A model generated the notes under the pieces. It was not told the origin of the DNA. It did not search any database and was given only the letters and a program-made list of their open reading frames with translations. A stretch of DNA of 20,000 nt from Euglena gracilis (lineage: Eukaryota), in contig CP154954.1 in NCBI GenBank assembly GCA_039621445.1, positions 26,787,963 to 26,807,962 of the forward strand. Direction: 5' to 3'. The position numbers and the translations under genes are program-made. Of this stretch, positions 311-18,996 are shown piece after piece (positions within the stretch are counted from its first letter, which is position 1; each line of letters opens with the position of its first letter).

Positions 311-2187
311 CCGTGGCGCACCCCACTCGGGTTTTCCGCAGAGTGAAATCCGGGGGGCTTCTAATTGGGGGTTAAGTCAACAAGAGGCAACCGGTGCCAA
401 ACAATGCATGCAATGCCCAATGGTGCCCAATGGTGGATTTATTGACTTCTTTACATCAGAGAAATGCATCCATGATGTGGAATGTAGCATTTTTGATCAG
501 AATTTTTTAAGCAAATGTACACAGATCAGGAAGGATATGGATGGAGACTTTAAACAATCACTGTTGCGAAATTGCGACATTTTGCAGAATAATTTTCGGA
601 AATTTGCGGAAATAGTAAAAAAAAAAACAAACAAAGTTGATGCCAAGGTCCAGAACAAGCATATGATGGTTACTGCAGATTCGAGCGTGAGGCCAAAACC
701 CCAGGAGGTGAGTAATCCGGATCTGGTTGACTTTTGGACCCCCCCCCCGGTCTCCCCCCTAGAACCTGACCGACCTGAACTTGACTGTTGACTTCCCAGG
801 ATGTGCACCGGCTGGGGGACAAGTGGGAGCTACAGAGCGGTATGAAATAGACAGGGGACGACTGCCCAAAAGCGAGAACGGCCAGGGGCAGAGGGCAGCC
901 AGAACCAAAACACTTCCGGCCCCTGAATTGACCCTGGAGTCATTGCGGAAGAATTGACATCCCGATCCATGCAAACGTGTGATTTTGACTTCAAGAATTG
1001 TTGCACTTTGAGCAGTTTTCCGCCTGAGGAAGAAGATTTTTGAATTATGGGCCGATAAATGGGCATTGTGGCATCAGACATTTCCCCCCCAAAAACCAAG
1101 TTCTGGATCAACCACTACGGCCGCTGGTTGACCCCAACTAGCTTGTTTTTTAGAGTTTTTTTTTTGTTGAATTTATACTTTTTTCTAAAGAAATGAAGTG
1201 TTGAGGCCCAAAATTTCCTTAAGCTCAAGTGACAATTCGATATTACCCTGCCTGAATATGTATATAGCCGCCACAAGAAATGAACAAATGATGTTAGAAA
1301 AAAGAGAAATATCTGCCAACTGCCCTCCTGCCCCTGCTGGGACTACACTACAGGAGCACAGGCAGCACACTCCAATATTTCCAGTTCAGCCAAAAGCGTG
1401 CCTGCCAATGTCCCTGACAGCACCGCCATTGCGCAATGGCACAAGCCTTGGCAGCCAGATGGACCCATAATCTTCCCCTGGGAATCCAAACTCTGTTGAA
1501 CGTTCACTGGGATCCCAGTGGACAGTCTACACCCGTGTGAAGGTATTGGAATTTTCAATCCCTGCCAGGATGAAAGAGAGTGCCATTAGGCCTTCAAAAA
1601 TCACAATCATTTCTGGTATTTGATCACCCCCCCCAAGTTGGAACATGGGGCCTGCCAGAAATGCTCAGGCACTTCGGCAATGTGCCACCCCCAGGGATGC
1701 AATGCAAACTGTCCGTTTGATGAAGCAAAGCTGCCCCCCCTTTCCCCTGACCAGGCAGAAATCCAAGGACACCCCCAGCAGGGGATGCCTCCTGGACAGG
1801 TGCTTGACAGCAGATCTAAGGGGGGGGTTCTGACTTGTCTGGGTGGAGGTGCTGGTCTCAAAGCAGCCACAGAAGGCTTGCCAAGGGGGTGATGGGGGTG
1901 GGTGGAACGGTGCTGTACAGATGAATGGCGGTCCAAACTTCTGTTAGAATGGATCAGGCACAATGGAAAAGAACACAGGACAATTTGAGGGTGTGCAAGG
2001 GTGTGTAAGAGAATGTGGGGGGGGGGGCAATGGTTGACAGTGATAACTGAATGCTTGGGAAAACCAAAAATTTAGGGCGACAATTTTCAATTATTTCTCA
2101 CTAGCAGCTCTCAAATTTCACCTCCTGTGAGGGCTGTAAACCCCCCCCACCCCCACCCTCAGGGTTTTGGGATTTCTGTAAATTCCC

Positions 2188-2493
2188 CATGGCGCTCCTT
2201 GAGGTAAAAAAAAAAATCCTGTCTCAACACATTCAATGAAAAAAACAAAATGGTTTGGAAAATAATCATATTTTGGCAAAAAAAATGTGTCGATTTCGGG
2301 GGAAAAGGCTATTCCTTGCATCTTCACACATCGTCCATCCACCCAAAATATAAAACTGCACTTTTCGACTTCTTAATTTTTGACCCCGTTCGATCCCTGG
2401 ATCGGCCGTTGGCCGTCCCTGGGGCCTGAAGATCCCTTTGGGGTGGACTTTGAAAATAAAAACCAACCTTCCCGTCCCTTATTGGCCGCCTTG
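2188..2493 (+). mobile_element. Degenerate MITE, family J
   Basis: Internal sequence matches 14523-14839 (CCATCCACCCAAA...TTTTCGACTT.TTAATTTTTG). Decayed termini CATGGCGCTCCTT / GGCCGCCTTG; flanks AAATTCCC / ACATCCCC (6/8). Confidence 0.6.
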
Positions 2494-2975
2494 ACATCCC
2501 CTGCCCTTGCCCCTGTCTCAGAACATGGTGCCTACCTTAATGGCCACATGTAAGGGAAGTCCCTCTTGACCTTTCTTTCAAAATGGAGGGGCATCCACCC
2601 TTGGCAATGCCCTTTTGAACTTTTCATGGGTCATGTGGATTGGAACTGCAACACCGCCCCACAGTTTGCTTACTGAACCACGTCCCATTGTGGCAGTCTT
2701 TCAGGGGGGATCATTTGGGGGGTCCACAATGTTCATTTGTCCAAAGGTCATCAAAGTGGGGTGTGAACTCGGCGAAAGAAATCAATTTTGTGGGATGCCC
2801 AGAGAAAACAGAATTTTAGGCAGCAAGAGGGTATACAAAGCAATATGAGTTTGAATACAGGAAGCGGATGCTGCCACGCCACCTGGAATGGAAATTTCAC
2901 TTTTGACAATTCATCTGGGTGATTGTCAAATTGGATTGTCAAATTTCATCAATGTACATGTGTCCCCTCTGCCTG

Positions 2976-3260
2976 GGAAACTGTCACCTGACAGGTCGGC
3001 CAGTGCTGAGGACCCTGACAGCTTCCTATCATGACAGGTTGGCCAGCACCCAAGACCCTGACAGTTTCCAAGGAGGGGGGCCTTGACAGTTTCCTGGGGA
3101 GGGCATTTTAAGGGAAAATCAATGGAAAAAAAAAGACCCTGACAGGTTGGTCAGCACCAGGGACCCTGACAACTTCCTAAACTGACAGGTTGGCCGGTGA
3201 CGGGGACCCTGACAGTTTCACGAGCAGGACCCTGACAGGTTCTCAGGCATGACAGTTTCC
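2976..3260. repeat. TGACAG-motif array bounded by 11-bp inverted repeats
   Basis: 11 direct copies of TGACA(G) in alternating TGACAGGT / GACCCTGACAGTTTC contexts; GGAAACTGTCA (2976-2986) is the reverse complement of TGACAGTTTCC (3250-3260). Confidence 0.75.
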
Positions 3261-3408
3261 AATGGGAGGGAGGGAGGTATGTGTGCAATAGGTACGCACG
3301 TCCACACCTGCTCCCCCCCAATCTAACAAACGTCCTGGTCCCTGTTCGGATCACAACTTTTGTCACCTGGAATTTCATATTATGCATGAATATCTGTGCA
3401 CATATCTG

Positions 3409-3796
3409 CAGGGGGGGGGGAATGCGCTCGCCCGGCCTCGGAAAAAATGCGCAAAAATGCGCAAAAAAATGCGCAAAAAAAATGCGCAAAAATCACGAAA
3501 ATGCAAAAATTACCCAAAACCATGCAAAAATGGCACCAAATTTGAAGAAATTATGTAGAATAATGAGGAAAATGTAAGTTTTAAAAAAAGTCGAAAATTT
3601 CAAATTTTTGCAAAAAAAATTGCAAAAATGGTCAAAAAATGCGAAAATTTTGGAAAATCACGAAAAAATGTGCCAAAAAGCAAAAAAATGCGCTGAAAAA
3701 AAAATGAAAGAATGCGCAAAAAATGCGAAAAAAATGCGCATTTTGGAAAATTTGAAAAAATGCGCAAAAACTGCGAAAAAATGCGAAATGCCCCTG
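3409..3796 (+). mobile_element. MITE family K with internal AAAAATGCGC reiterations
   Basis: Starts CAGGGGG, ends CCCCTG; TATCTGCA (3403-3410, overlapping the left end) vs TATCTGTA (3797-3804); many AAAAATGCG(C) motifs; 5' part recurs at 14866. Confidence 0.7.
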
Positions 3797-3844
3797 TATC
3801 TGTATACATTGAAAATAACACATTCTTGGTCTATGCATTGTTGC

Positions 3845-4479
3845 CAGGCTATTGCTTAAGGTCCCCAGGAGGGTCACTGGTTAGCCATTTCACTAGACAC
3901 TGGAAAAAAGGAGCTAGACCAGCCACCCCCCCCCAGGAAAAATTTTTTCTCCAGGAAAGAAATGAAGTTTTTAATACATTTTTTGGCTGATTTTGCAAAA
4001 ATCCCAAAAATGGCCAAAAATGGGCCTGTTTGGCAGGTTTTGGGAGTCCTCCAAAAAATTGCGGCACTTCGCGCCGGTCACTGTAAAAATTGCTAGCGGA
4101 CCCCCTCCAGGGAGGTCATTGGGATTTCGCTCGCCAAATTTGGCCTACTGTGAACCAGGCTTCTTTTTAAGTCCCCCGGGGGGGGGGAGGGGGGGGGGTC
4201 CCCCCCACCCACCCAGGGTGGCGCGGGCCCCCCTCCAAGGGGGGGGGGGTCCGGGGACCCCCCCAAAATCGGGCCCGTTAAAGGCAATTTTCAAAAATTT
4301 TCGGCACTTCGCGCCGAAAAGGTATACCCAGCGCCTCCGGCGCGGGACCCCCCCCCCCCCCTGGGGGGGGGGGGGTCCGGCCCGGACCCACCCACCCACC
4401 CCCCCTCCCCCCCCGGGGGGGGGGGGGGGGGCGGGGGACTTAAAAAGAAGCCTGCTGTGAACCCTTAAGCAATGGACTG
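3845..4479 (+). mobile_element. hAT-type MITE family E (hosts nested family D copy)
   Basis: TIRs CAGGCTATTGCTTAAGG / CCTTAAGCAATGGACTG; perfect 8-bp TSD ATTGTTGC at 3837-3844 and 4480-4487. Confidence 0.9.
4156..4454. mobile_element. hAT-type MITE family D, nested in E
   Basis: Perfect 23-bp TIR CAGGCTTCTTTTTAAGTCCCCCG; perfect TSD CTGTGAAC at 4148-4155 and 4455-4462. Confidence 0.95.
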
Positions 4480-5939
4480 ATTGTTGCAAGAAAACTGTTG
4501 CACATCAAATTTCGAGAATTTGATGCAACCCTTCATTGATATGGTAATTTTTTGAAATGATTGTTGCTTCTGTGGCATATTGAAGGTTTTCAACAGCAAG
4601 CCTTGTCTGCAATTCTTCAAAAGAATTATGCAGCCTTGGGGCATCAACAGCCATAAATATATCTGGCCTCTGGGTGAGGAACCAACTTTGAAGGAGGCCA
4701 AGTTTCCACATGATCGTTAAAAAGGAATATGAGGCTAAACTGTGAGGGAAGATAACAGCCCTGGGTTTGAGAAAACTGAATGTTGGGCTCATTACAGACG
4801 GCAGAGAGGGGAGTGGTCAGCGTTCGGCGGGAACGCTGTAAAAAGGACCCAACGGGTGCCGCTCTACAACAGAAGGCGCAAAATACTTTAAAAAATGCGG
4901 GAGCACCCTTTGTCCGACTCTTCAAAATGGCACACTGACATGTGAACACCCAGGGCTCATGTACCCCCCCCTTTGCCCACCGACCGGGTTCCTATGACCC
5001 CTGACCGGGGGGGGGGGTCATACACGCCACCCAACCCACCACCCCCGACCAGGGGGTGGTCGGACGGCTGAGTACAAAAACAAAAAAACAACCCAGTTTT
5101 CAAAGCCACCTACAACCCCGGCCAGGGTGGTCGTATGTACCCCCGAAACTGTATCCCCCAACTGGGGGGTGGTCGTTGTTCATGGGTGGTTAGCGGGCAA
5201 AGGAAGGAGGTATGGGGGCTGTGGTGAGTTGGGTGGGATGACATTGGAACCTTCAAGAAAATTATGGATGACTGCAGAAAAGCTCATACTGAGAACACAT
5301 TTCCACTGAAGAGGAAAAAATCACCTCAGGCTCAAAGTGCCAATTTTTTCCAAGTTGAAAAAAAATTCCCAGCAGAACTGGGGGGGAGGGGCAAACTTGG
5401 CACGAAGGGTCCCCTTGGGAACAAAAAAAATCATAGGGGAGCTGAGGGAAAAGTTTGGCGTAGAAATCGGCACCCCCCAGAAAAATGGAAAGGCCTGGTG
5501 GGGGGCCAGGGATGGATGGGAAGCCTTGAGGGTCGGACCCCCCCCCCTCCTACTCGAAACTGAGGGAGGGCCGAAAATTTTTCGATTTCATGGACGGGCA
5601 AAGGGCCGGAAATCTGTTTGAAATCGGTCAAAAATCCCTGATTTTTCTTTGAAAATCAATCCAAAAATGCTCATTTTTGAAATTTTTTGAACATTTTTTT
5701 GGGGGGGGGGAACACCAACACGTCAAAAAGTGGGCAATATGTCCAAAAGTCAGCAAAAGGGGGGGTTTTGCTCATTTTCCGGCGCTGTGCGCCGGAAGAA
5801 AATTTTCTGCTATTTTTGGCACCTGTTAAGGAGGGGTGGTCCGCCCCCCCTACCACCTTATCCCCCCAGGGGGGGTGGGGACCCCCCCCCTACCACCTAC
5901 CTCAATACCGGTTGGCTCCCTGGGGGGGGGTCCCCACCC

Positions 5940-6257
5940 CACAGCGGTCCTTTACAAAATTTAAAAAAAAAACTCCGCTGTTCCAGCACAGTCAATGGAA
6001 AAAAAACCAGGGAAGTGGGCAAGAAAAATTGGTATTTTCCGGCAAGAAGAGGTCGAAACCAGGAAAAAAATAATCCCTGGCATCCTTGGACTATCGCCCA
6101 TCCACCCAAATCATCAAAAAATGTGCATTTCGGCTTTTGAGTTTTTGACCCCGTTCAAGTCCCAGTCCAGCCCTTGGTCGGCAGAAAGGGGGGGGGCAGT
6201 CCTTAAGAAAACGAAAAAAAACTTTCCTGACCCTTCCGGTTTCAAAGGACCGCCCTG
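5940..6257 (+). mobile_element. MITE family J
   Basis: Colinear with 14523-14839; right TIR AAGGACCGCCCTG intact, left CACAGCGGTCCTT decayed; TSD weak (C-rich). Confidence 0.8.
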
Positions 6258-7044
6258 ACCCCCCCCCACACACAGTTCTGTACAGCCCCTGGCAAATTCC
6301 GCCAAAAATCAAAAAATACACAAATGCAGAAAAGGCGCTTGTGCCCTCCCCTGCCTTGAGACCCATTTGACGAATTATCAGAACGCATTGCGTCATCCAT
6401 TGGGTGGATCTCAAGGAATCATTATTATTATTTTTTATTAAATTATTTTTCACGGCGGGAGGGGTCCCAGCTCAGCCCACCCCACGATGGATGGGGGTCC
6501 CTCTTTTTTTTCAGTGCGAAGAACTAACATTTTTGGGACAAAATTGACCCCCAAATCCCCTGTCCCACCCCAGGGGCTGGTTTGGTGCCGACCCCCCCCC
6601 CGGGTCCTTAAAAAAAATCTCACACACCTCATCCATTTGATATTATGCATTTGAACCAATTTCTTTAAAAAAGGGTCGGACCAAAATGAGTTCCATCTGT
6701 TTCGACGAAAACCAAATTAAAAAAAAGTGCTGGGGGGATCGCTGGGGGAGGACCTGAACCAAAACCTCACAGAATAAAAAACCACCAAAATGAGAAGATG
6801 CCTTGTTCAAAAAAAAAAGAAACCCAACATTACACCGCTTCGCAGACGCTCAATCCACCTCCATCATTTGCAGCAAAAGGATGAAATGTGAAATGGGGAT
6901 TCCAATGTACATCAAAAGGACTGGTGTGCTGACCTCCGCTCAGGATATCACCTGACGGCATCCCACATACCAACCCCCAAGGGAAACACATCTCTGGATT
7001 GCCAATTCTCAGGTAGCAGTCCACCCCTCTCGACCTGTTGACTT

Positions 7045-7444
7045 CATAGTGGGCATTTTTTTAAAAAAAACAATGTGTTTCTTGAAGAAGAAAAAACACC
7101 AAAAAAAACCATTAAAAAGACAAAAGGGAAATTTCTTTGAAAAAACTCGTTATGAAACACCCAAACCATACTCTTTAAGATAAGATACTTTGAATCCTAC
7201 TAAGTTCAAAAACTGCCAAAACATGGGTCAAAATGCAGAAAAATGCAATTTTATGACGTTTTTCATGTTTGTGGAAATGAGTTTTTGGCAGAAAATACCC
7301 AGAGGTTGCCAAAATGATTGAAAATAAACATATAAAATTTTTTTGTGCAAAACCTCATGGGCGTTTTTTTGTTTTTTTAATATTGTCAAATTTTAAAAAA
7401 GCAAACAAAAAAACAACCTCAATAAAAACAGGCTGCCCACAATG
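7045..7444 (-). mobile_element. AT-rich MITE family F (inverted relative to 18598-18996)
   Basis: TIRs CATAGTGGGCA / TGCCCACAATG; TSD GTTGACTT / ATTAACTT (6/8); body is the reverse complement of the 18598 copy. Confidence 0.85.
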
Positions 7445-8281
7445 ATTAACTTGTCAAATTTGAACTCCGTTTGATAACGAACGTGTTGTGAGGATTTCAT
7501 AAATAATCAGAGCTGGAAGCGGAAGCCACCTTGGGGTGAACACCAGATGACCCTCATCCAGATAACCCTCATTGCAGGAGGAGGACTCGCAACGGGCATC
7601 CAACCTTGAAAAGGATGGTGGTGACCCATTTTGCAGGGAAGCCTTTTTACCCTTCATTTTCCAGGGAAGCCTTGAGAAAAATTGCAGGAAAACTGCGGGA
7701 AAAGAAAGAGGAAAAATGTGTGGGGGAAAACAGAGGGAAAATTGTGGGAATTGCAGCTATTTTTGTCAAATTGGTGATTGCTTTGAGATGTTATTGACAC
7801 TTTTTCCAACAAAAAACCCAGACAAAGGATTTTGTACTTTCTGGAACACACTGATTTCAGAAATAATTATAAATAATTTGTAAAAATTGGCAAACTTTGG
7901 CAAATTGGCAACAAAATATCAAAAAAATGCACCAGGGTTCCCTCATGAAACGCTCAAGGCATGGCCGGAACTCACTTCGCCATCCGTTTCAGGTTCATGC
8001 GGAAAAATTGTGGAAAAGCTTCAAAAATGGTGGACAACTGCAGAAATTGCGGGAAAATTGTGGTTATCAATTCCCCACCCCTGCATTTGAACCAACTGAA
8101 TGTGACCCGAGAGAACCGAAACCCAAAGCCAAAATCGCAGCTTCGCTCACTCCACTCATTCATTCCACTCATTCCACTCCACTCATTCCCTGCCCAAGCA
8201 CCCAAGAGTCAAAAAATTCCTCAAAAGGGCCTCATCATGGCGTTGATTTTTTCCCAAGAAATTCCGGGAGTCACCCTGGCG

Positions 8282-8783: not shown

Positions 8784-9103
8784 CATGCTTGTGCTTACCA
8801 ACCGGGGGGGGGGAGGGGGGGGTGGGGGCTATAGGGTGCCTGCCCCTAGCAGGCACACCCCCCCCGGGGGGGGGGATAGGGGTCCGGGCCGGACCCAGAA
8901 AATTTTCATTGAAAATGGCCTTTTCCGGGCCCCCGGCGCCTTCGGCGCCGGGGTCGGAGGGGGGTGCCTGCTAGGGGCAGGCACCCCCCAAAACCCTACC
9001 CCCCCCCGGGGGGGGGGGGGTCGGATCGGGTGCTATGGGGTGCCTGCCCCTAGCACCCGCCCCCCCCCCCCGTGGGGTAGGCACCCGACTAAGCACAAGC
9101 CTG
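8784..9103 (+). mobile_element. hAT-type MITE family A
   Basis: TIRs CATGCTTGTGCTTA / TAAGCACAAGCCTG; perfect TSD GTGTCCGC at 8776-8783 and 9104-9111. Confidence 0.95.
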
Positions 9104-9696
9104 GTGTCCGCCCTCTCACCTGGTCCAGGAGGAGGGCACCCCTCCACCGAAACCCCTCACACCCTCCTTGCACCCTTACACCCTACACCCCACTTTTTAC
9201 ACCCTCCTCTAGGGGTTTCCTACTCTAAACAGTGTCAAAAGGCGCAATAGACGACCAGAGACCGTGGAAAAAATAAAAATTCCACGACACACTCTTCTGA
9301 TACCTGATTTGGTGGGCACCTCATACAGAAGGTGTTGGAACTTACAGCCAGAATTGATTTTTCTTCACATTTTCGGATTTTTTTTTGGAAAAAGCATTTT
9401 CTTTTGGCCCAGTCCAGTTGGGTTGGAACTTTTTTGAGTCAAAAACCCAGGTCAAATCCAAAAATACCTCAAACAGCCAAAAATAATAATTTTAGGCCAT
9501 TTTTTGCCCCTTTTGAAAGAAAAAAACAAATGGCGATCCGTGTTATTTTTTTTTAGGTCCAGAAAGTCCTGTGCTCTTTCTTTCATTGAATCTTTCATTG
9601 AATAAATAAATAAAAGTTTCCATCAACTGAGGACAAAAAGAAGCCAAGGACGGACCCTTTTTGAAACGACATTACAAGTTTGCCCCCCATTGAGGT

Positions 9697-9803
9697 TGCC
9701 TGTCTGGCATCTGTTTTGCTGGAGGAAGCCGGGCTGCTGTTCGCTGGCGAGAAAGGTGGTCGGCCAGCTTGGTTAACGACATGACAGCCGCTTCATTGTC
9801 CTC
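9697..9803 (-). CDS. Exon of the CCCH zinc-finger gene (EDNEAAVMSLTKLADHLSRQRTAARLPPAKQMPDR); alternatively reads through to the stop at 9672
   Basis: Starts exactly 5 nt after CCTG on the minus strand and continues the zinc-finger exon in frame (...KEMRCR|EDNEAAV...). Confidence 0.75.
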
Positions 9804-10478
9804 CCAGCCAGGCTTCTCTTCTCTGACCCCAGGTGGTCCTTGCCCAAAGCACCACCCCCAGGGAGATGCGCAAAACCCCCCTTCTCTGTTTTTTTTGGTG
9901 GTGGCACGTTTTCGGCGATCCACAGAGACGATGCTTTGCAGCCCGAATATCACAAAAAACACACACACAAAATTGAAAAGGGGGCTGATTGGCAGTTCCT
10001 GGTCTGAGAGTCCGTGCAGGGGAAAGCAAAAATCTCAGAAACCTCTTTCATGGGTTTTTACCAGTTTGAAAAACGAAAATTAGGGGCCGGTGTTTTTTTG
10101 TCTAAGGGCGAAGCGGGACAAAAAAACATGGACACCTTCGTTGCTGTGTCCATTTGTTTGAGATTGAGCATTGTCCAGGCTTCTGCTTAAGGGTTCAGCA
10201 CCCCCTGGAGGGGGGGGGGCTCAACTGCAGCTTGTCCAAATTTGGCCAGTTGGAATTCTGTTACAAAAAAAAACCAGCCCCAACCGAAAACACGAAACAA
10301 AGGCGAGAATTGCAGCAGAAAAGAATATCTCTTTGTTTGCCTGACCTGAACATTGATGGTGCCTGGCCTGAACATTGATGGTGCTTTGACACTCCCCATC
10401 CCAAAAACCGACCCCCTCCCAGAAGAGGGGAAACTTTGAAAATGCCAGTGGCGGGGTCACATTCAAAAAAGCCTGCTC
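9804..10478 (-). other. Nonconventional intron = decayed MITE (9809-10475) plus one TSD length
   Basis: Minus strand: AGG|GAG-CAGGCTTTTTT ... AAGAGAAGCCTG-GCTGG|GAG. CAG at +4..+6, CTG at -8..-6, no GT donor; 7/8 TSD CTCCCAGC (9801-9808) / CTCCCTGC (10476-10483); removal is in frame. Confidence 0.8.
10176..10260 (-). mobile_element. Inverted terminal fragment of a family E-like MITE inside the intron
   Basis: CAGGCTTCTGCTTAAGGG...TGCAG...GTCCAAATTTGGC is the reverse complement of the 11140-11222 end. Confidence 0.65.
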
Positions 10479-10652
10479 CCTGCAGCGCATTTCCTTAGCC
10501 CCATGGGCATAGACACAGGTGTCCCCGTAAGGGCACTTCCCAGTCTCCTTCCAATTGCGACACAGGCGCGTCTTGTACTTGTTGTGGTCCACTGAGTGAT
10601 CATCGTGATGGGTGCCCGAAACCTTGGCGGCCTTTGCATTCCTCTTGGCCTT
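10479..10652 (-). CDS. CCCH-type (C-x8-C-x5-C-x3-H) zinc-finger exon, TIS11/ZC3H-like RNA-binding protein
   Basis: 174 nt = 58 codons containing [27 protein letters not shown] with the canonical KYKT lead-in; bounded by CCCTG-AGACC| and |GAG-CAGG. Confidence 0.9.
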
Positions 10653-11352
10653 GGTCTCAGGGTTGGATACGCCCAACCCAGAAGAAACCAGGATTCTTTC
10701 CTTGGAAAAAAAAGAGGGTCAAAAATAGGGGGAAATGGCATTTTCTCCGCAAAATTTTGGCTTAACAATCTCAACCCAGCTGGATTGGAATTTTTTCCGC
10801 CAACTTTTCAGAAGCTGGTTGGACTCCCTGGCTAGCCAATCGGCTAGACACTGGAAAAAAATGGACCAGCTAGACCCTCTCCTCCCCCGGGGGGAAGGGG
10901 GGCACCCCCAACTGGAAAAAAATTTCCTCCGGCGCTGTGCGCTGAGGTGGAAATGAGGTTTTTAATAGGTTTTTGGCTGATTTTGATCCAAAAATTCCCA
11001 AATGGCCAAAAGCAGGCATTTTTGGCCATTTTTGGGGGTCCCAACAAAAATTCAGTGCTTCGCGCCGGTCACTGGAAAAATTTTTTCCACTGGCTAGCCC
11101 TGCTAGCAGACCCCCCCCCGGGGGGGTCTGCTAGAAATCCCACTAGCCAAATTTGGACTATCTGCAGTCCAGCCCCCCCCCGGGGGGGGGGGGGGTACTA
11201 CAATCCCTTCAGCAAAAGCCTGGTCAGCCCCTTCTGGTGGCTGCACCACTGCACTGTGATTGGCAGGCAGGTGACTGTCAGAGGAAATACATCCTTTTTT
11301 CTCTAGACTTCGTACCCAGTTTTTGGTTCCAAGGAAGGGGAATTCCCTGGTT
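10653..11352 (-). other. Putative nonconventional intron upstream of the zinc-finger exon (3' end well supported, 5' end tentative)
   Basis: Minus strand |AAC-CAGGG ... CCCTG-AGACC|; the 5' CAGGGAATTCCCCTTCCTTGG can also pair with 10689-10706; TSD only 4/8. Confidence 0.4.
10820..11222 (+). mobile_element. Family E-like MITE (left end decayed)
   Basis: Body colinear with 3875-4145 (TAGCCA...CTAGACACTGGAAAAAA...TTTTTGGCTGATTTTG...CTTCGCGCCGGTCACTG); right TIR CTTCAGCAAAAGCCTG. Confidence 0.75.
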
Positions 11353-11400: not shown

Positions 11401-12104
11401 CATGCTGTTTTTACCAACCCCAGGGGGGGGGGGGGTCCGGAGTGCCTGCCCAGGCAGGCACTACCCCAGGGTTCGATATAAGGACAGGTGGGGGGGTGGT
11501 CCGGACCCCCCCCCCGGGGGGCCAGGAGGGGGGGGGGGGTTGGGGGGCACACCCCCCCCCACCTAAACAGGTGCGCGGTCTGGGTTACCGAAAAATTTTG
11601 ACACCCCAAAACGACCAAAAGTGCCATTTTGGGCACTTTTTGGGCAAAAAATGTGCCAAAAATGCAAAAAATTTTCGGCGCAAAGCGCCGGAGGAAAAAA
11701 TCGACCCTTTTTGGGGGGGTCCCGGGAATCCCCCCGAGGGTCGGTCCGGACCCCCCTGGCAGGTGGGGGGGAGTGGTCCGGACCCCCCCCCTCCGGGCCA
11801 GGAGGGGTGGGTGGGGGGGACACCCCCCCCACCTAAACCATGTACGCCCTCCTTATATCAAACCCTGCACTACCCCCCCGGGGGGTCGGATTTCGGCCAG
11901 TGCCCAGGCACATTCCTTTGAAAATAGGCCATTTTTGGCTCCCCGGCGCCTTTGGCGCCGGGGTTGTGCCAGGGCACTTTTGGCAGTTTGCCCTACCCCC
12001 CCCCCCCGGGGGTGTGTCGCCTTTGGGGTACCTAGGAATGCCTCCCCAGGCCGGTACCCCCCCCACGTGGTTGGGTCGGCACCCGACTAAAAAAAAACAG
12101 CCTG
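11401..12104 (+). mobile_element. hAT-type MITE family B (hosts nested family C copy)
   Basis: TIRs CATGCTGTTTTT / AAAAACAGCCTG; TSD GTCTGGAT / GTCTGGAC (7/8); body matches 17066-17384. Confidence 0.9.
11467..11867 (+). mobile_element. hAT-type MITE family C, nested in B
   Basis: TIRs CAGGGTTCGATATAAGGA / TCCTTATATCAAACCCTG (17/18); perfect TSD CACTACCC at 11459-11466 and 11868-11875. Confidence 0.95.
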
Positions 12105-13499: not shown

Positions 13500-13779
13500 C
13501 ATGCTTGTGCTTACCGACCGGGGGGGGGGGAGGGGGGGGGTGCTATAGGGTGCCTGCCCTAGCAGGCACACCCGGGGGGGACCCAGAAAATTTTCATTGA
13601 AAATGGCCTTTTCCAGGCCCCAGCGCCGAAGGCGCCGGGGTCGGAGGGGGGTGCCTGCTAGGGGCAGGCACCCCCCAAAACCCTACCCCCCCCCCGGGGG
13701 GGTCGGATCGGGTGCTATGGGGTGTCTGCCCCTAGCACCCCCCCCCCGTGGGGTAGGCACGCGACTAAGCACAAGCCTT
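13500..13779 (+). mobile_element. hAT-type MITE family A
   Basis: TIRs CATGCTTGTGCTTA / TAAGCACAAGCCTT; TSD GATGGGAC / GATGGAAC (7/8); removal rejoins PSSQVP|SCGPVRLKW in frame. Confidence 0.92.
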
Positions 13780-14522: not shown

Positions 14523-14839
14523 CAGGGCGGTCCTTAAGCAAATAAAAAAAAAAACTCCGCTGTCCCAGCACACTCAGTGAAAAATTTACCGGAAAATGGG
14601 CAAATAAATTTTGGCATTTTTCAGCGAGAACAGGTCGACATCAGGAAAAAAAATTGATTCCTGGCACCCTTGGACCATCATCCATCCACCCAAATCATCA
14701 AAAACTGTGTTTTTCGACTTTTTAATTTTTGCCTTTTCCAAGTCCTAGTCCAGCCCTTGGTTGGCCCTTTGGCCGAAAGGGGGGCGGTCCTTAAGGAAAT
14801 ATAAAAAAAAAACTTTCCTGTCCCCTAAGGACCGCCCTG
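14523..14839 (+). mobile_element. hAT-type MITE family J
   Basis: TIRs CAGGGCGGTCCTTA / TAAGGACCGCCCTG; perfect TSD TTGCTCAC at 14515-14522 and 14840-14847. Confidence 0.95.
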
Positions 14840-16923: not shown

Positions 16924-17466
16924 CAGGCTTGTGCTTACCGACCGGGGGGGGGGGAGGGGGGTGGGTGGGTGCTATGGGGTGCCTGCCCCAAGAAGGCACA
17001 CCCCCGGGGGGGGGGGGGTCCGGGGGGACCCAGAAAATTCTCATTGAAAAAGGCCTTTTCCGGGCCAGGCTGTTTTTTTACCAACCCCGGGGGGGAGGGG
17101 GGGGTCCGGAGTGCTTTTGAGTGCCTGACCAGGCAGGCACTGGGGGGGGGGGTCGGATTTTGGCCTGTGCCCAGGCACATTCCTTTGAAAATAGGCCATT
17201 TTTGGCTCCCCGCGCCTTTGGCGCCGGGTCTGTGCTAGGGCACTTGTGCTAGGCACTTGAGGTAGGGCCGTGTGCCCTACCCCCCCCCCCCGGGGGGGAC
17301 GGGTCGGGAGTGCCTTGAAGTGCCTGCCCAGGCAGGCCCCCCCCCCCCTGGGGTGGGGTCGGCACCTGACTAAAATACAGCCTGTTCCGGGCCCCCGGCG
17401 CCTTTGGCACCTTTAGCCTTTAGCATCCCCTCCCGTGGGGTAGGCACCCGACTAAGCACAAGCCTG
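16924..17466 (+). mobile_element. hAT-type MITE family A (hosts nested family B copy)
   Basis: Perfect TIRs CAGGCTTGTGCTTA / TAAGCACAAGCCTG; perfect TSD GCTGCGGC; removal restores VVRQIIAAASSLSTAPLLEKVRAH. Confidence 0.95.
17066..17384 (+). mobile_element. hAT-type MITE family B, nested in A
   Basis: TIRs CAGGCTGTTTTTT / TAAAATACAGCCTG; perfect TSD TTCCGGGC at 17058-17065 and 17385-17392. Confidence 0.95.
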
Positions 17467-18597: not shown

Positions 18598-18996
18598 CAT
18601 AGTGGGCACGCCTGTTTTTTTTGACGTTGTTTTTTTGTTTTTTTATTTCTAACAATGTTTTTTTTAAAAAAAACAAAAAACACGCCCACTAGGTTTTGCA
18701 GAGAAAATTTTTTGAATGTGTATTTTCGGTCATTTTTGGCAACTTTTGGGTCAGTTTTACCAAAAACTACCTCCTGTAAAAAATGGAAAAAGTCATAAAA
18801 TTGCATTTTTTTGCTTTTTTGGATGTTTTCGACCATTTTTGGCACTTTTGAACTGAGTAGGATTCAAAATATGGTTTGGGAGTTTCATAATGAGTTTTCT
18901 GAATGAAATCTCCCTTTTGCTTTTTGATGTTTTTTTAGTGGTTTTTTTTTAAAAAAAACACATTGTTTTGTTTTTTTTAAAAAAATGCCCACTATG
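18598..18996 (+). mobile_element. AT-rich MITE family F
   Basis: Perfect TIR CATAGTGGGCA / TGCCCACTATG; perfect TSD GAGGGAGC at 18590-18597 and 18997-19004. Confidence 0.95.

Follow-up and report, generated by a model that had tools for sequence, protein, structure and literature searches.

The stretch of DNA examined here (20,000 nucleotides of contig CP154954.1, hereafter the window) carries on its minus strand part of a gene for a CCCH zinc-finger protein, whose coding sequence is interrupted by an intron without a GT donor. RNA sequences joined across this site skip 675 nt, that is, a 667-bp transposon-like element with inverted ends plus 8 nt, and the element is flanked by an imperfect direct repeat of 8 bp. 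We consider it likely that this intron (9804-10478, minus strand) is a nonconventional intron of the euglenid type that originated from a MITE (a miniature transposable element with inverted repeats) with an 8-bp target-site duplication (TSD), in a CCCH zinc-finger gene most likely belonging to Euglena gracilis.

The exon upstream of the intron encodes the zinc finger (C-x8-C-x5-C-x3-H; Pfam zf-CCCH, E 4.2e-13), as the initial annotation of the window had proposed, and the next exon further upstream lies outside the window. The downstream exon had been thought to reach a stop codon at 9672; it ends instead at 9690, where another nonconventional intron starts. In total, the part of the gene inside the window contains nine introns, all nonconventional and none GT-AG, three of them within the coding sequence and six after the stop codon. 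On the minus strand, within 821-7573, the coding sequence stops in exon 7532-7573. The transcript leaves the window on both sides, with 229 reads going upstream past 10652 and 136 going beyond 821; as the sequence into which the 229 upstream reads continue is absent from the window, the upstream intron is either longer than about 9.3 kb or exits the window.

Removal of the segment was examined in four public runs mapped over the whole window: X15 and X17, two assemblies from separate studies that we take to be RNA; X21, an RNA-seq run of which about 5% was analysed, in the form of raw reads; and X2, a DNA assembly. The RNA joint 9800>10476, which can slide by 5 nt, occurs in one contig of X15 (depth 677.7), in one contig of X17 (depth 1151.7) and in 215 reads of X21 (91 + 124, with 103 start places). 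No contig of X2 contains it, and contigs of that run cross both junctions at single-copy depth (9103-9928 at 150, 10217-10855 at 141). The same transcript carries nine such joints, all in one RNA contig, and none of the nine occurs in X2. Fourteen DNA runs contain 0.96-0.97 of the words of the stretch. Two soil metatranscriptome runs, X19 and X20, share 0.22 and 0.17 of these words, from which no conclusion is drawn.

These data bear directly on what had been predicted from the DNA. The segment had been proposed to be an intron without a GT donor, and the 215 reads and two RNA contigs, set beside the lack of any such DNA contig, confirm that it is a real and expressed intron. The mRNA reads ...CGC TGC AGG GAG GAC AAT... 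across the junction, exactly the joint that had been foreseen. The check suggested at the time, a search of RNA-seq for the junction, returned the 675-nt skip, with no GT-AG or GC-AG ends at any placement compatible with it.

The protein records tell the same story. A query with the 59-residue zinc-finger exon was 100% identical to three database proteins. One of them, P0003, is a transcript-derived sequence of 270 residues (source name eukprot:EG_transcript_18911, whose EG_ prefix presumably stands for the Euglena gracilis transcriptome); it reads ...KEMRCREDNEAAV... / ...KEMRCREDNEAAVMSL... straight across the junction and ends ...GIFQ. The spliced exons of the window give the same protein, including the ...GIFQ end, with two residues differing. 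Two homologues, P0004 and P0005 (66% and 61% identity), align through the junction without a gap, and excision is therefore scarless relative to these relatives. P0001 and P0002, predicted from Logan contigs, continue past the exon into intron sequence. Compared with window 10221-10718, they show no difference in the exon, and several substitutions and one indel in the intron. It follows that this intron is also present, in diverged versions, in other alleles or strains and that its insertion is not of very recent date, in agreement with the imperfect repeat and the worn inverted repeats described below.

By direct reading, the element extends over 9809-10475 and on the plus strand starts with CAGGCTT and ends with AAGCCTG. 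Its flanks are CTCCCAGC at 9801-9808 and CTCCCTGC at 10476-10483, a direct repeat matching at 7/8, whose copies differ only at position 6, where 9806 is A and 10481 is T; the initial annotation had described this 7/8 repeat around a CAGGCT...AGCCTG segment, and both its coordinates and its description are correct. Terminal inverted repeats (TIRs) are present: 7 nt are identical, and 9/14 match over the first 14, which is weaker than in the other copies of the window (11-14/14). The two TSD copies share their first five bases, which lets the cut slide by 5 nt and makes six placements of the intron equivalent, from 9801-10475 through 9806-10480. Their ends are CA..AG, GC..GA, AG..GG, GA..GG, GG..TG and GG..CT, so that GT-AG, GC-AG or AT-AC ends are found at 0/6 placements compatible with the mRNA. 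At every placement bases 9806-9808 (AGC) of the first TSD copy leave with the intron and bases 10481-10483 (TGC) of the second are retained in the mRNA.

Among the six placements, only the one shifted by 3, which reads GAG-CAG...CTG-GCTGG|G, has CAG at +4..+6, CTG at -8..-6 and a next exon starting with a purine (its first base is G). Such positions of CAG and CTG had been cited for euglenid nonconventional introns when the segment was annotated, and placement 9804-10478 has them. They are the earlier consensus of PMC3935182 and PMC4770533. More recently, knock-in experiments in E. gracilis by Nomura et al. (PMC12501133) yielded a genetically defined signature, 5'-N3CDG-/-CH'GN5-6|R, with a 5' spacer of strictly 3 nt and a 3' spacer of 5 nt, a length of 6 being tolerated. 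This signature accounts for 61.2% of the nonconventional introns of E. agilis (PMC12501133). The intron of the window fits this code completely, its placement, given the 5-nt slide, being compatible with the code and not independently determined.

The two ends can also pair. A terminal RNA helix of 11 bp (9 Watson-Crick and 2 G-U pairs) leaves an overhang sum of 8, and the predicted minimum-free-energy fold of the whole intron pairs both ends (z-score -2.08).

Reading the flanking repeat as a TSD is well founded, since elements with CAG ends and exact 8-bp TSDs occur in the same window. CAGGCTT is found 12 times against 3.77 expected, a count reached in 0/200 shuffles. We scanned the window for CA...TG inverted repeats with at least 11/14 terminal bases matching and 80-2500 bp apart, which gave 306 pairs, 8 of them with perfect 8-bp flanking repeats and 2 at 7/8. 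When the flanks were displaced by 8 or by 16 positions, 0/306 pairs reached at least 7/8 in either control (maximum 6/8). Among the lengths scanned, from 5 to 11, perfect flanking repeats were found at length 8 only, which is the signature of a fixed staggered cut. A looser scan returned 456 pairs with 6 perfect repeats and 2 at 7/8, the intron element (9809-10475) being one of the latter. A different 8-mer flanks each element and three insertions are nested, from which it follows that the duplications derive from the target and not from the element. We conclude that CAG-ended MITEs making 8-bp duplications are real in this window. The 7-nt terminus of the intron element is that of 4156-4454, of 16924-17466 and of one end of 8784-9103, and five further CAGGCTT termini of the window mark the ends of elements that either have 8-bp TSDs or are homologous to such elements. 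The coordinates of all these features are collected in Table 1.

Table 1. Features of the window that relate to the intron, its gene and the neighbouring MITE-like elements
Feature	Position	Strand	Basis or remarks
Transposon-like element, inverted repeat to inverted repeat (CAGGCTT...AAGCCTG)	9809..10475		667 bp
TSD copy CTCCCAGC, downstream in gene orientation	9801..9808		sequence and RNA joint
TSD copy CTCCCTGC, upstream in gene orientation	10476..10483		sequence and RNA joint
Nonconventional intron of 675 nt, position according to the N3-CAG...CTG-N5|R code from the literature	9804..10478	-	RNA joint and code
Terminal helix, 5' arm (CAGGCUUUUUU)	10465..10475	-	helix and whole-intron fold
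Terminal helix, 3' arm (AGAGAAGCCUG)	9809..9819	-	helix and whole-intron fold
Solo MITE-terminus-like segment in the element (CAGGCTTCTGCTTAAGGG...)	10172..10259		inverted match to 11133-11226, 74% over 94 nt
22-bp tandem duplication within the intron	10338..10384		2.1 copies, 96% matches
Upstream coding exon with CCCH zinc finger	10479..10652	-	contig pieces, zf-CCCH, 100% identity to P0003
Downstream coding exon (EDNEAAVMSLTKLADHL...)	9690..9803	-	contig pieces 9690-9800; joined frame equals P0003 across the junction
3' untranslated region (UTR), nonconventional introns	6922-7531, 4899-6886, 2873-4806, 1927-2818, 1410-1854, 880-1338	-	RNA joints
MITE, perfect TSD ATTGTTGC	3845-4479		strict scan
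MITE, 299 bp, 23-nt perfect TIR starting CAGGCTT, perfect TSD CTGTGAAC	4156-4454		nested in 3845-4479
MITE, perfect 8-bp TSD, one end CAGGCTT	8784-9103		strict scan
Element at 7/8 flank match	11401-12104		strict scan; contains 11467-11867
MITE, perfect 8-bp TSD	11467-11867		strict scan; inside 11401-12104
Element with flanks GATGGGAC/GATGGAAC, 7/8	13500-13779		placed by eye, not among scan pairs
MITE, perfect 8-bp TSD	14523-14839		strict scan
MITE, 543 bp, CAGGCTTGTGCTTA termini, perfect TSD GCTGCGGC	16924-17466		strict scan; contains 17066-17384
MITE, perfect TSD TTCCGGGC	17066-17384		strict scan; nested in 16924-17466
MITE, perfect 8-bp TSD	18598-18996		strict scan

The preferred origin of the intron can be laid out as a sequence of steps. 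A non-autonomous DNA transposon with CAG...CTG inverted termini would have inserted in an exon of the zinc-finger gene, duplicating 8 bp of its target in the manner of hAT elements. Within the pre-mRNA its two termini would pair, and the noncanonical splicing machinery of Euglena would make its cuts 3 nt before CAG and 5 nt after CTG. As 3 + 5 = 8, the element would leave together with exactly one duplication's worth of bases, and its removal would restore the reading frame that existed before the insertion. The initial annotation had put this as removal from TIR to TIR plus one TSD, with 3 nt before the element and 5 nt after it. The length bears out the first half of that statement (667 + 8); the division into 3 and 5 is one of the six equivalent placements, and the locus does not fix it.

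Several observations weigh against this scheme. First, the 3/5 split at 9804-10478 cannot be read from the locus alone and follows from the published code. Second, the element is not shown to be a member of a repeated family, because its interior is single, with no second copy in the window except the 88-bp segment 10172-10259, and its junctions lie at single-copy DNA depth. Third, the inverted repeat is weak at the DNA level (7 perfect, 9/14), failing the strict scan and passing the looser one only. Fourth, the solo terminus inside the element hints at a composite history. Fifth, a transposase domain was found in 0/10 large open reading frames (ORFs) of the window, and position 8 of the TSD is, on the plus strand, C in 10/11 left-flank copies with no mirror G at position 1, an asymmetric target preference that is unexpected because the hAT-type target is symmetric. 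Finally, the 3 + 5 = 8 arithmetic is not established as a general rule: it is found in 3/9 introns of the gene only, the strict CAG/CTG code is fitted by 2/9 only, and the best-helix overhang sums of the other six introns are 5, 7, 11, 17, 18 and 18, some of them ambiguous.

As to the last point, the three introns whose best terminal helix gives an overhang sum of 8 are 9801-10475, 4899-6886 and 1410-1854. At the register predicted for the repeat, their 8-mers match at 7/8, 1/8 and 5/8, respectively. Intron 4899-6886 cannot slide, and it has CAT/GTG at +4 and -8. The geometry is thus common but not universal in this gene, as expected if old insertions were decaying. One of the nine, 2873-4806 (joint 2872>4807), reads GC..AG on the plus strand, and an aligner guided by splice motifs might place it on the wrong strand. 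That it is spliced conventionally from the plus strand was considered and rejected, both the transcript and the ORF being on the minus strand.

Concerning the internal terminus, no partner end in the window offers a matching 8-bp flank for either of the solo termini at 10176 and 11222. Pairing 10176...11222 as one element, which would enclose the CCCH exon, was rejected since the flanks mismatch, and none of the best-supported joints listed makes use of the end at 10176. Within the intron (10169-10184), the motif CATTGTC directly adjoins the second CAGGCTTCT terminus at 10176, and the same motif precedes the 8-bp duplication at the true element end (9794-9817). This sharing, together with the internal terminus, may point to partial duplication or to a composite history, if it is not due to chance.

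The alternative that survives best keeps the MITE origin and changes the superfamily: the intron would derive from another group making 8-bp TSDs, P-like or Merlin. P elements too duplicate 8 bp (PMC3698922), and two Merlin families with 8-bp TSDs have been described in E. gracilis (PMC8101967); three related copies in the window have a CATG left terminus, and the asymmetric target and the lack of a hAT transposase in the ORFs of the window would be at home with such an origin. The only domain match in the ORF search was AP_endonuc_2, below threshold (E 0.002, with 18.3 bits where the cut-off is 31.1). However, the Merlin termini are reported to start with GG (PMC8101967), and those of the window start with CA. 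The window elements also fit the description of hAT elements as making 8-bp TSDs and having TIRs of 5-27 bp (PMC3517528), and the TIR of Mar, a hAT MITE of Drosophila, starts with CAG(G/A)GG (PMC3517528), which resembles the window termini CAGGCTT, CAGGGTT and CAGGGCG.

The target sites themselves give mixed indications. TA occupies TSD positions 4-5 in 1/11 elements; position 2 is T in 7/11 and position 7 is a purine in 10/11, although A in 3/11. Targets of Ac-type hAT elements have T at position 2 and A at position 7, and the window sites lean towards that pattern. On balance we regard an origin from a superfamily other than hAT as unlikely, while granting it more weight than the remaining alternatives. 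The designation 'hAT-type' of the initial annotation is not established: the 8-bp TSD and the CAG termini fit it, the transposase search and the asymmetric target do not. Judged from sequence, 'hAT-like' would be the best label, and an unproven one.

A second alternative dispenses with transposition: the CAG and CTG ends would have been selected by the splicing code, and the 7/8 repeat would be due to chance or be the scar of a double-strand-break repair. The authors of PMC4770533 did take an 8-nt direct repeat as a possible fingerprint of repair, and the single-copy interior and the poor TIR beyond 7 nt would suit this view. Chance is nevertheless hard to reconcile with 0/612 displaced-flank comparisons reaching at least 7/8, and the same exact terminal 7-mer ends several elements with perfect 8-bp TSDs at non-exonic sites, including nested insertions; in the scan, perfect repeats are confined to length 8 among lengths 5 to 11. 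We hold this explanation to be improbable. The weakest alternative, that the joined transcripts come from another genomic copy (an allele, a paralogue or a retrocopy) lacking the segment, can appeal to the reported repeat richness and heterozygosity of Euglena and to the fact that contigs cannot prove absence, but it is very hard to sustain against a DNA run that covers the locus at single-copy depth with none of the nine joints, 14 DNA runs holding nearly all of the stretch, nine joints lying together in one RNA contig, and intron ends that obey a functionally validated splicing code (PMC12501133).

The other elements of the window form a swarm of 280-704 bp, with 8 perfect TSDs and 2 at 7/8, three of them nested and with at least four terminal types (CAGGCTT, CAGGCTG, CAGGGTT/CAGGGCG and CATAGTGGGCA). 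Contigs of DNA runs pile far higher on bins containing elements than on unique bins, a pile-up that does not measure copy number. Five related elements, whose left end is ...ACC... and whose right end is ...AGTCGGGTGCC, share one orientation. As all lie inside or next to a single transcription unit of the minus strand, the cause may be a preference for inserting in one orientation or selection on orientation. The pair 4108-6257 (7/8) was discounted as an element, its flanks being low-complexity runs of C. A metagenome scan with a 14-nt MITE terminus returned 118 loci with one match each, and blastn of 8 window elements against these loci (701,055 nt) gave no match; they were dropped as chance 14-mers.

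With respect to splicing, 9804-10478 is an ordinary member of the nonconventional introns of Euglena. Like them, it has non-GT-AG borders, CAG and CTG at the coded positions, paired ends and a next exon starting with a purine, a junction that can slide by virtue of short direct repeats, and a removal confirmed by RNA. Such introns have been described as excised in the form of circular RNA, independently of the spliceosome (PMC11282704). What this intron adds is that both its termini recur at the ends of MITEs of the same window whose 8-bp TSDs are exact, and that its 8-nt repeat stands in the very register that the code removes.

The intron class, the idea of a MITE origin and the notion of TSD-like repeats are already published. 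Milanowski et al. (PMC3935182) put forward the MITE hypothesis in 2013, when no euglenid transposon was known, and the proposal rests only on intron ends being inverted repeats. In 2016 Milanowski et al. (PMC4770533) settled the +4..+6 and -8..-6 positions and described direct repeats of eight nucleotides at a nonconventional intron that one E. agilis strain had gained recently. This is intron 4 of gapC in strain ACOI 323; it differs from the present case in that the repeat was attributed to possible double-strand-break repair and was linked neither to a transposon family nor to a TSD length. In a 2024 review (PMC11282704) the paired ends are termed TIRs and the repeats at the junctions 'TSD-like'; it names neither superfamily nor length, and the words 'hAT' and 'superfamil' are absent from it. 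A 2025 article (PMC12501133) presents MITEs only as a possible source and leaves target-site duplications unmentioned. A full-text search, whose coverage stops short of supplements and subscription journals, returned no article stating that the spacers sum to the TSD length of an identified transposon family, nor any that connects the nonconventional introns of Euglena with hAT or with a TSD of 8 bp.

Three better known systems resemble this locus in part. In introner elements of Micromonas, dinoflagellates and others (PMC11282704), the intron is also an element with TIRs plus part of its TSD, and excision restores the message. Introners are, however, spliceosomal, with GT/GC-AG sites that are supplied by the element or co-opted from a 3-nt TSD (PMC11282704), whereas 9804-10478 has no GT/GC-AG sites, a cut measured from the paired termini and a TSD of 8 bp. 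The Drosophila MITE Mar shares with the window element an 8-bp TSD, a short TIR starting with CAG, a small size and the lack of coding capacity; for Mar, however, a full-length relative has been identified and the target is of the Buster type, nnnTAnnn (PMC3517528), and the window element is excised at the RNA level. Finally, the MITE-derived internally eliminated sequences of ciliates (PMC9942856) offer a similar case of precise removal by the host making insertions in genes tolerable, except that in ciliates removal acts on DNA during development and here on the RNA, in every transcript.

The interest of this locus lies in the juxtaposition, within one window, of a coding intron that is verified by RNA and obeys the code, of CAG-ended MITEs with exact 8-bp TSDs, and of the 3 + 5 arithmetic. 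It makes the old MITE hypothesis directly testable genome-wide. A broader reading, which we offer tentatively and with slightly more doubt than conviction, is that the 3-nt and 5-nt spacers are the RNA image of an 8-bp TSD, and that nonconventional splicing is a precise excision, at the RNA level, of CAG-ended hAT-like MITEs. Such a link would account for the asymmetry of the code. If it holds, most nonconventional introns would be insertions of such MITEs at various stages of decay, and the circle that is cut out would hold, between the two termini, a single target site reconstituted. It may be speculated further that the 3/5 stagger, which leaves a 2-nt 3' overhang on the paired ends, points to a duplex-measuring nuclease rather than to the spliceosome. 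At stake are the origin of nonconventional introns, which make up 71.8% of the introns of E. agilis (PMC12501133), and the machinery that removes them, a machinery whose evolved role, as this locus suggests, may be to render transposon insertions in exons harmless.

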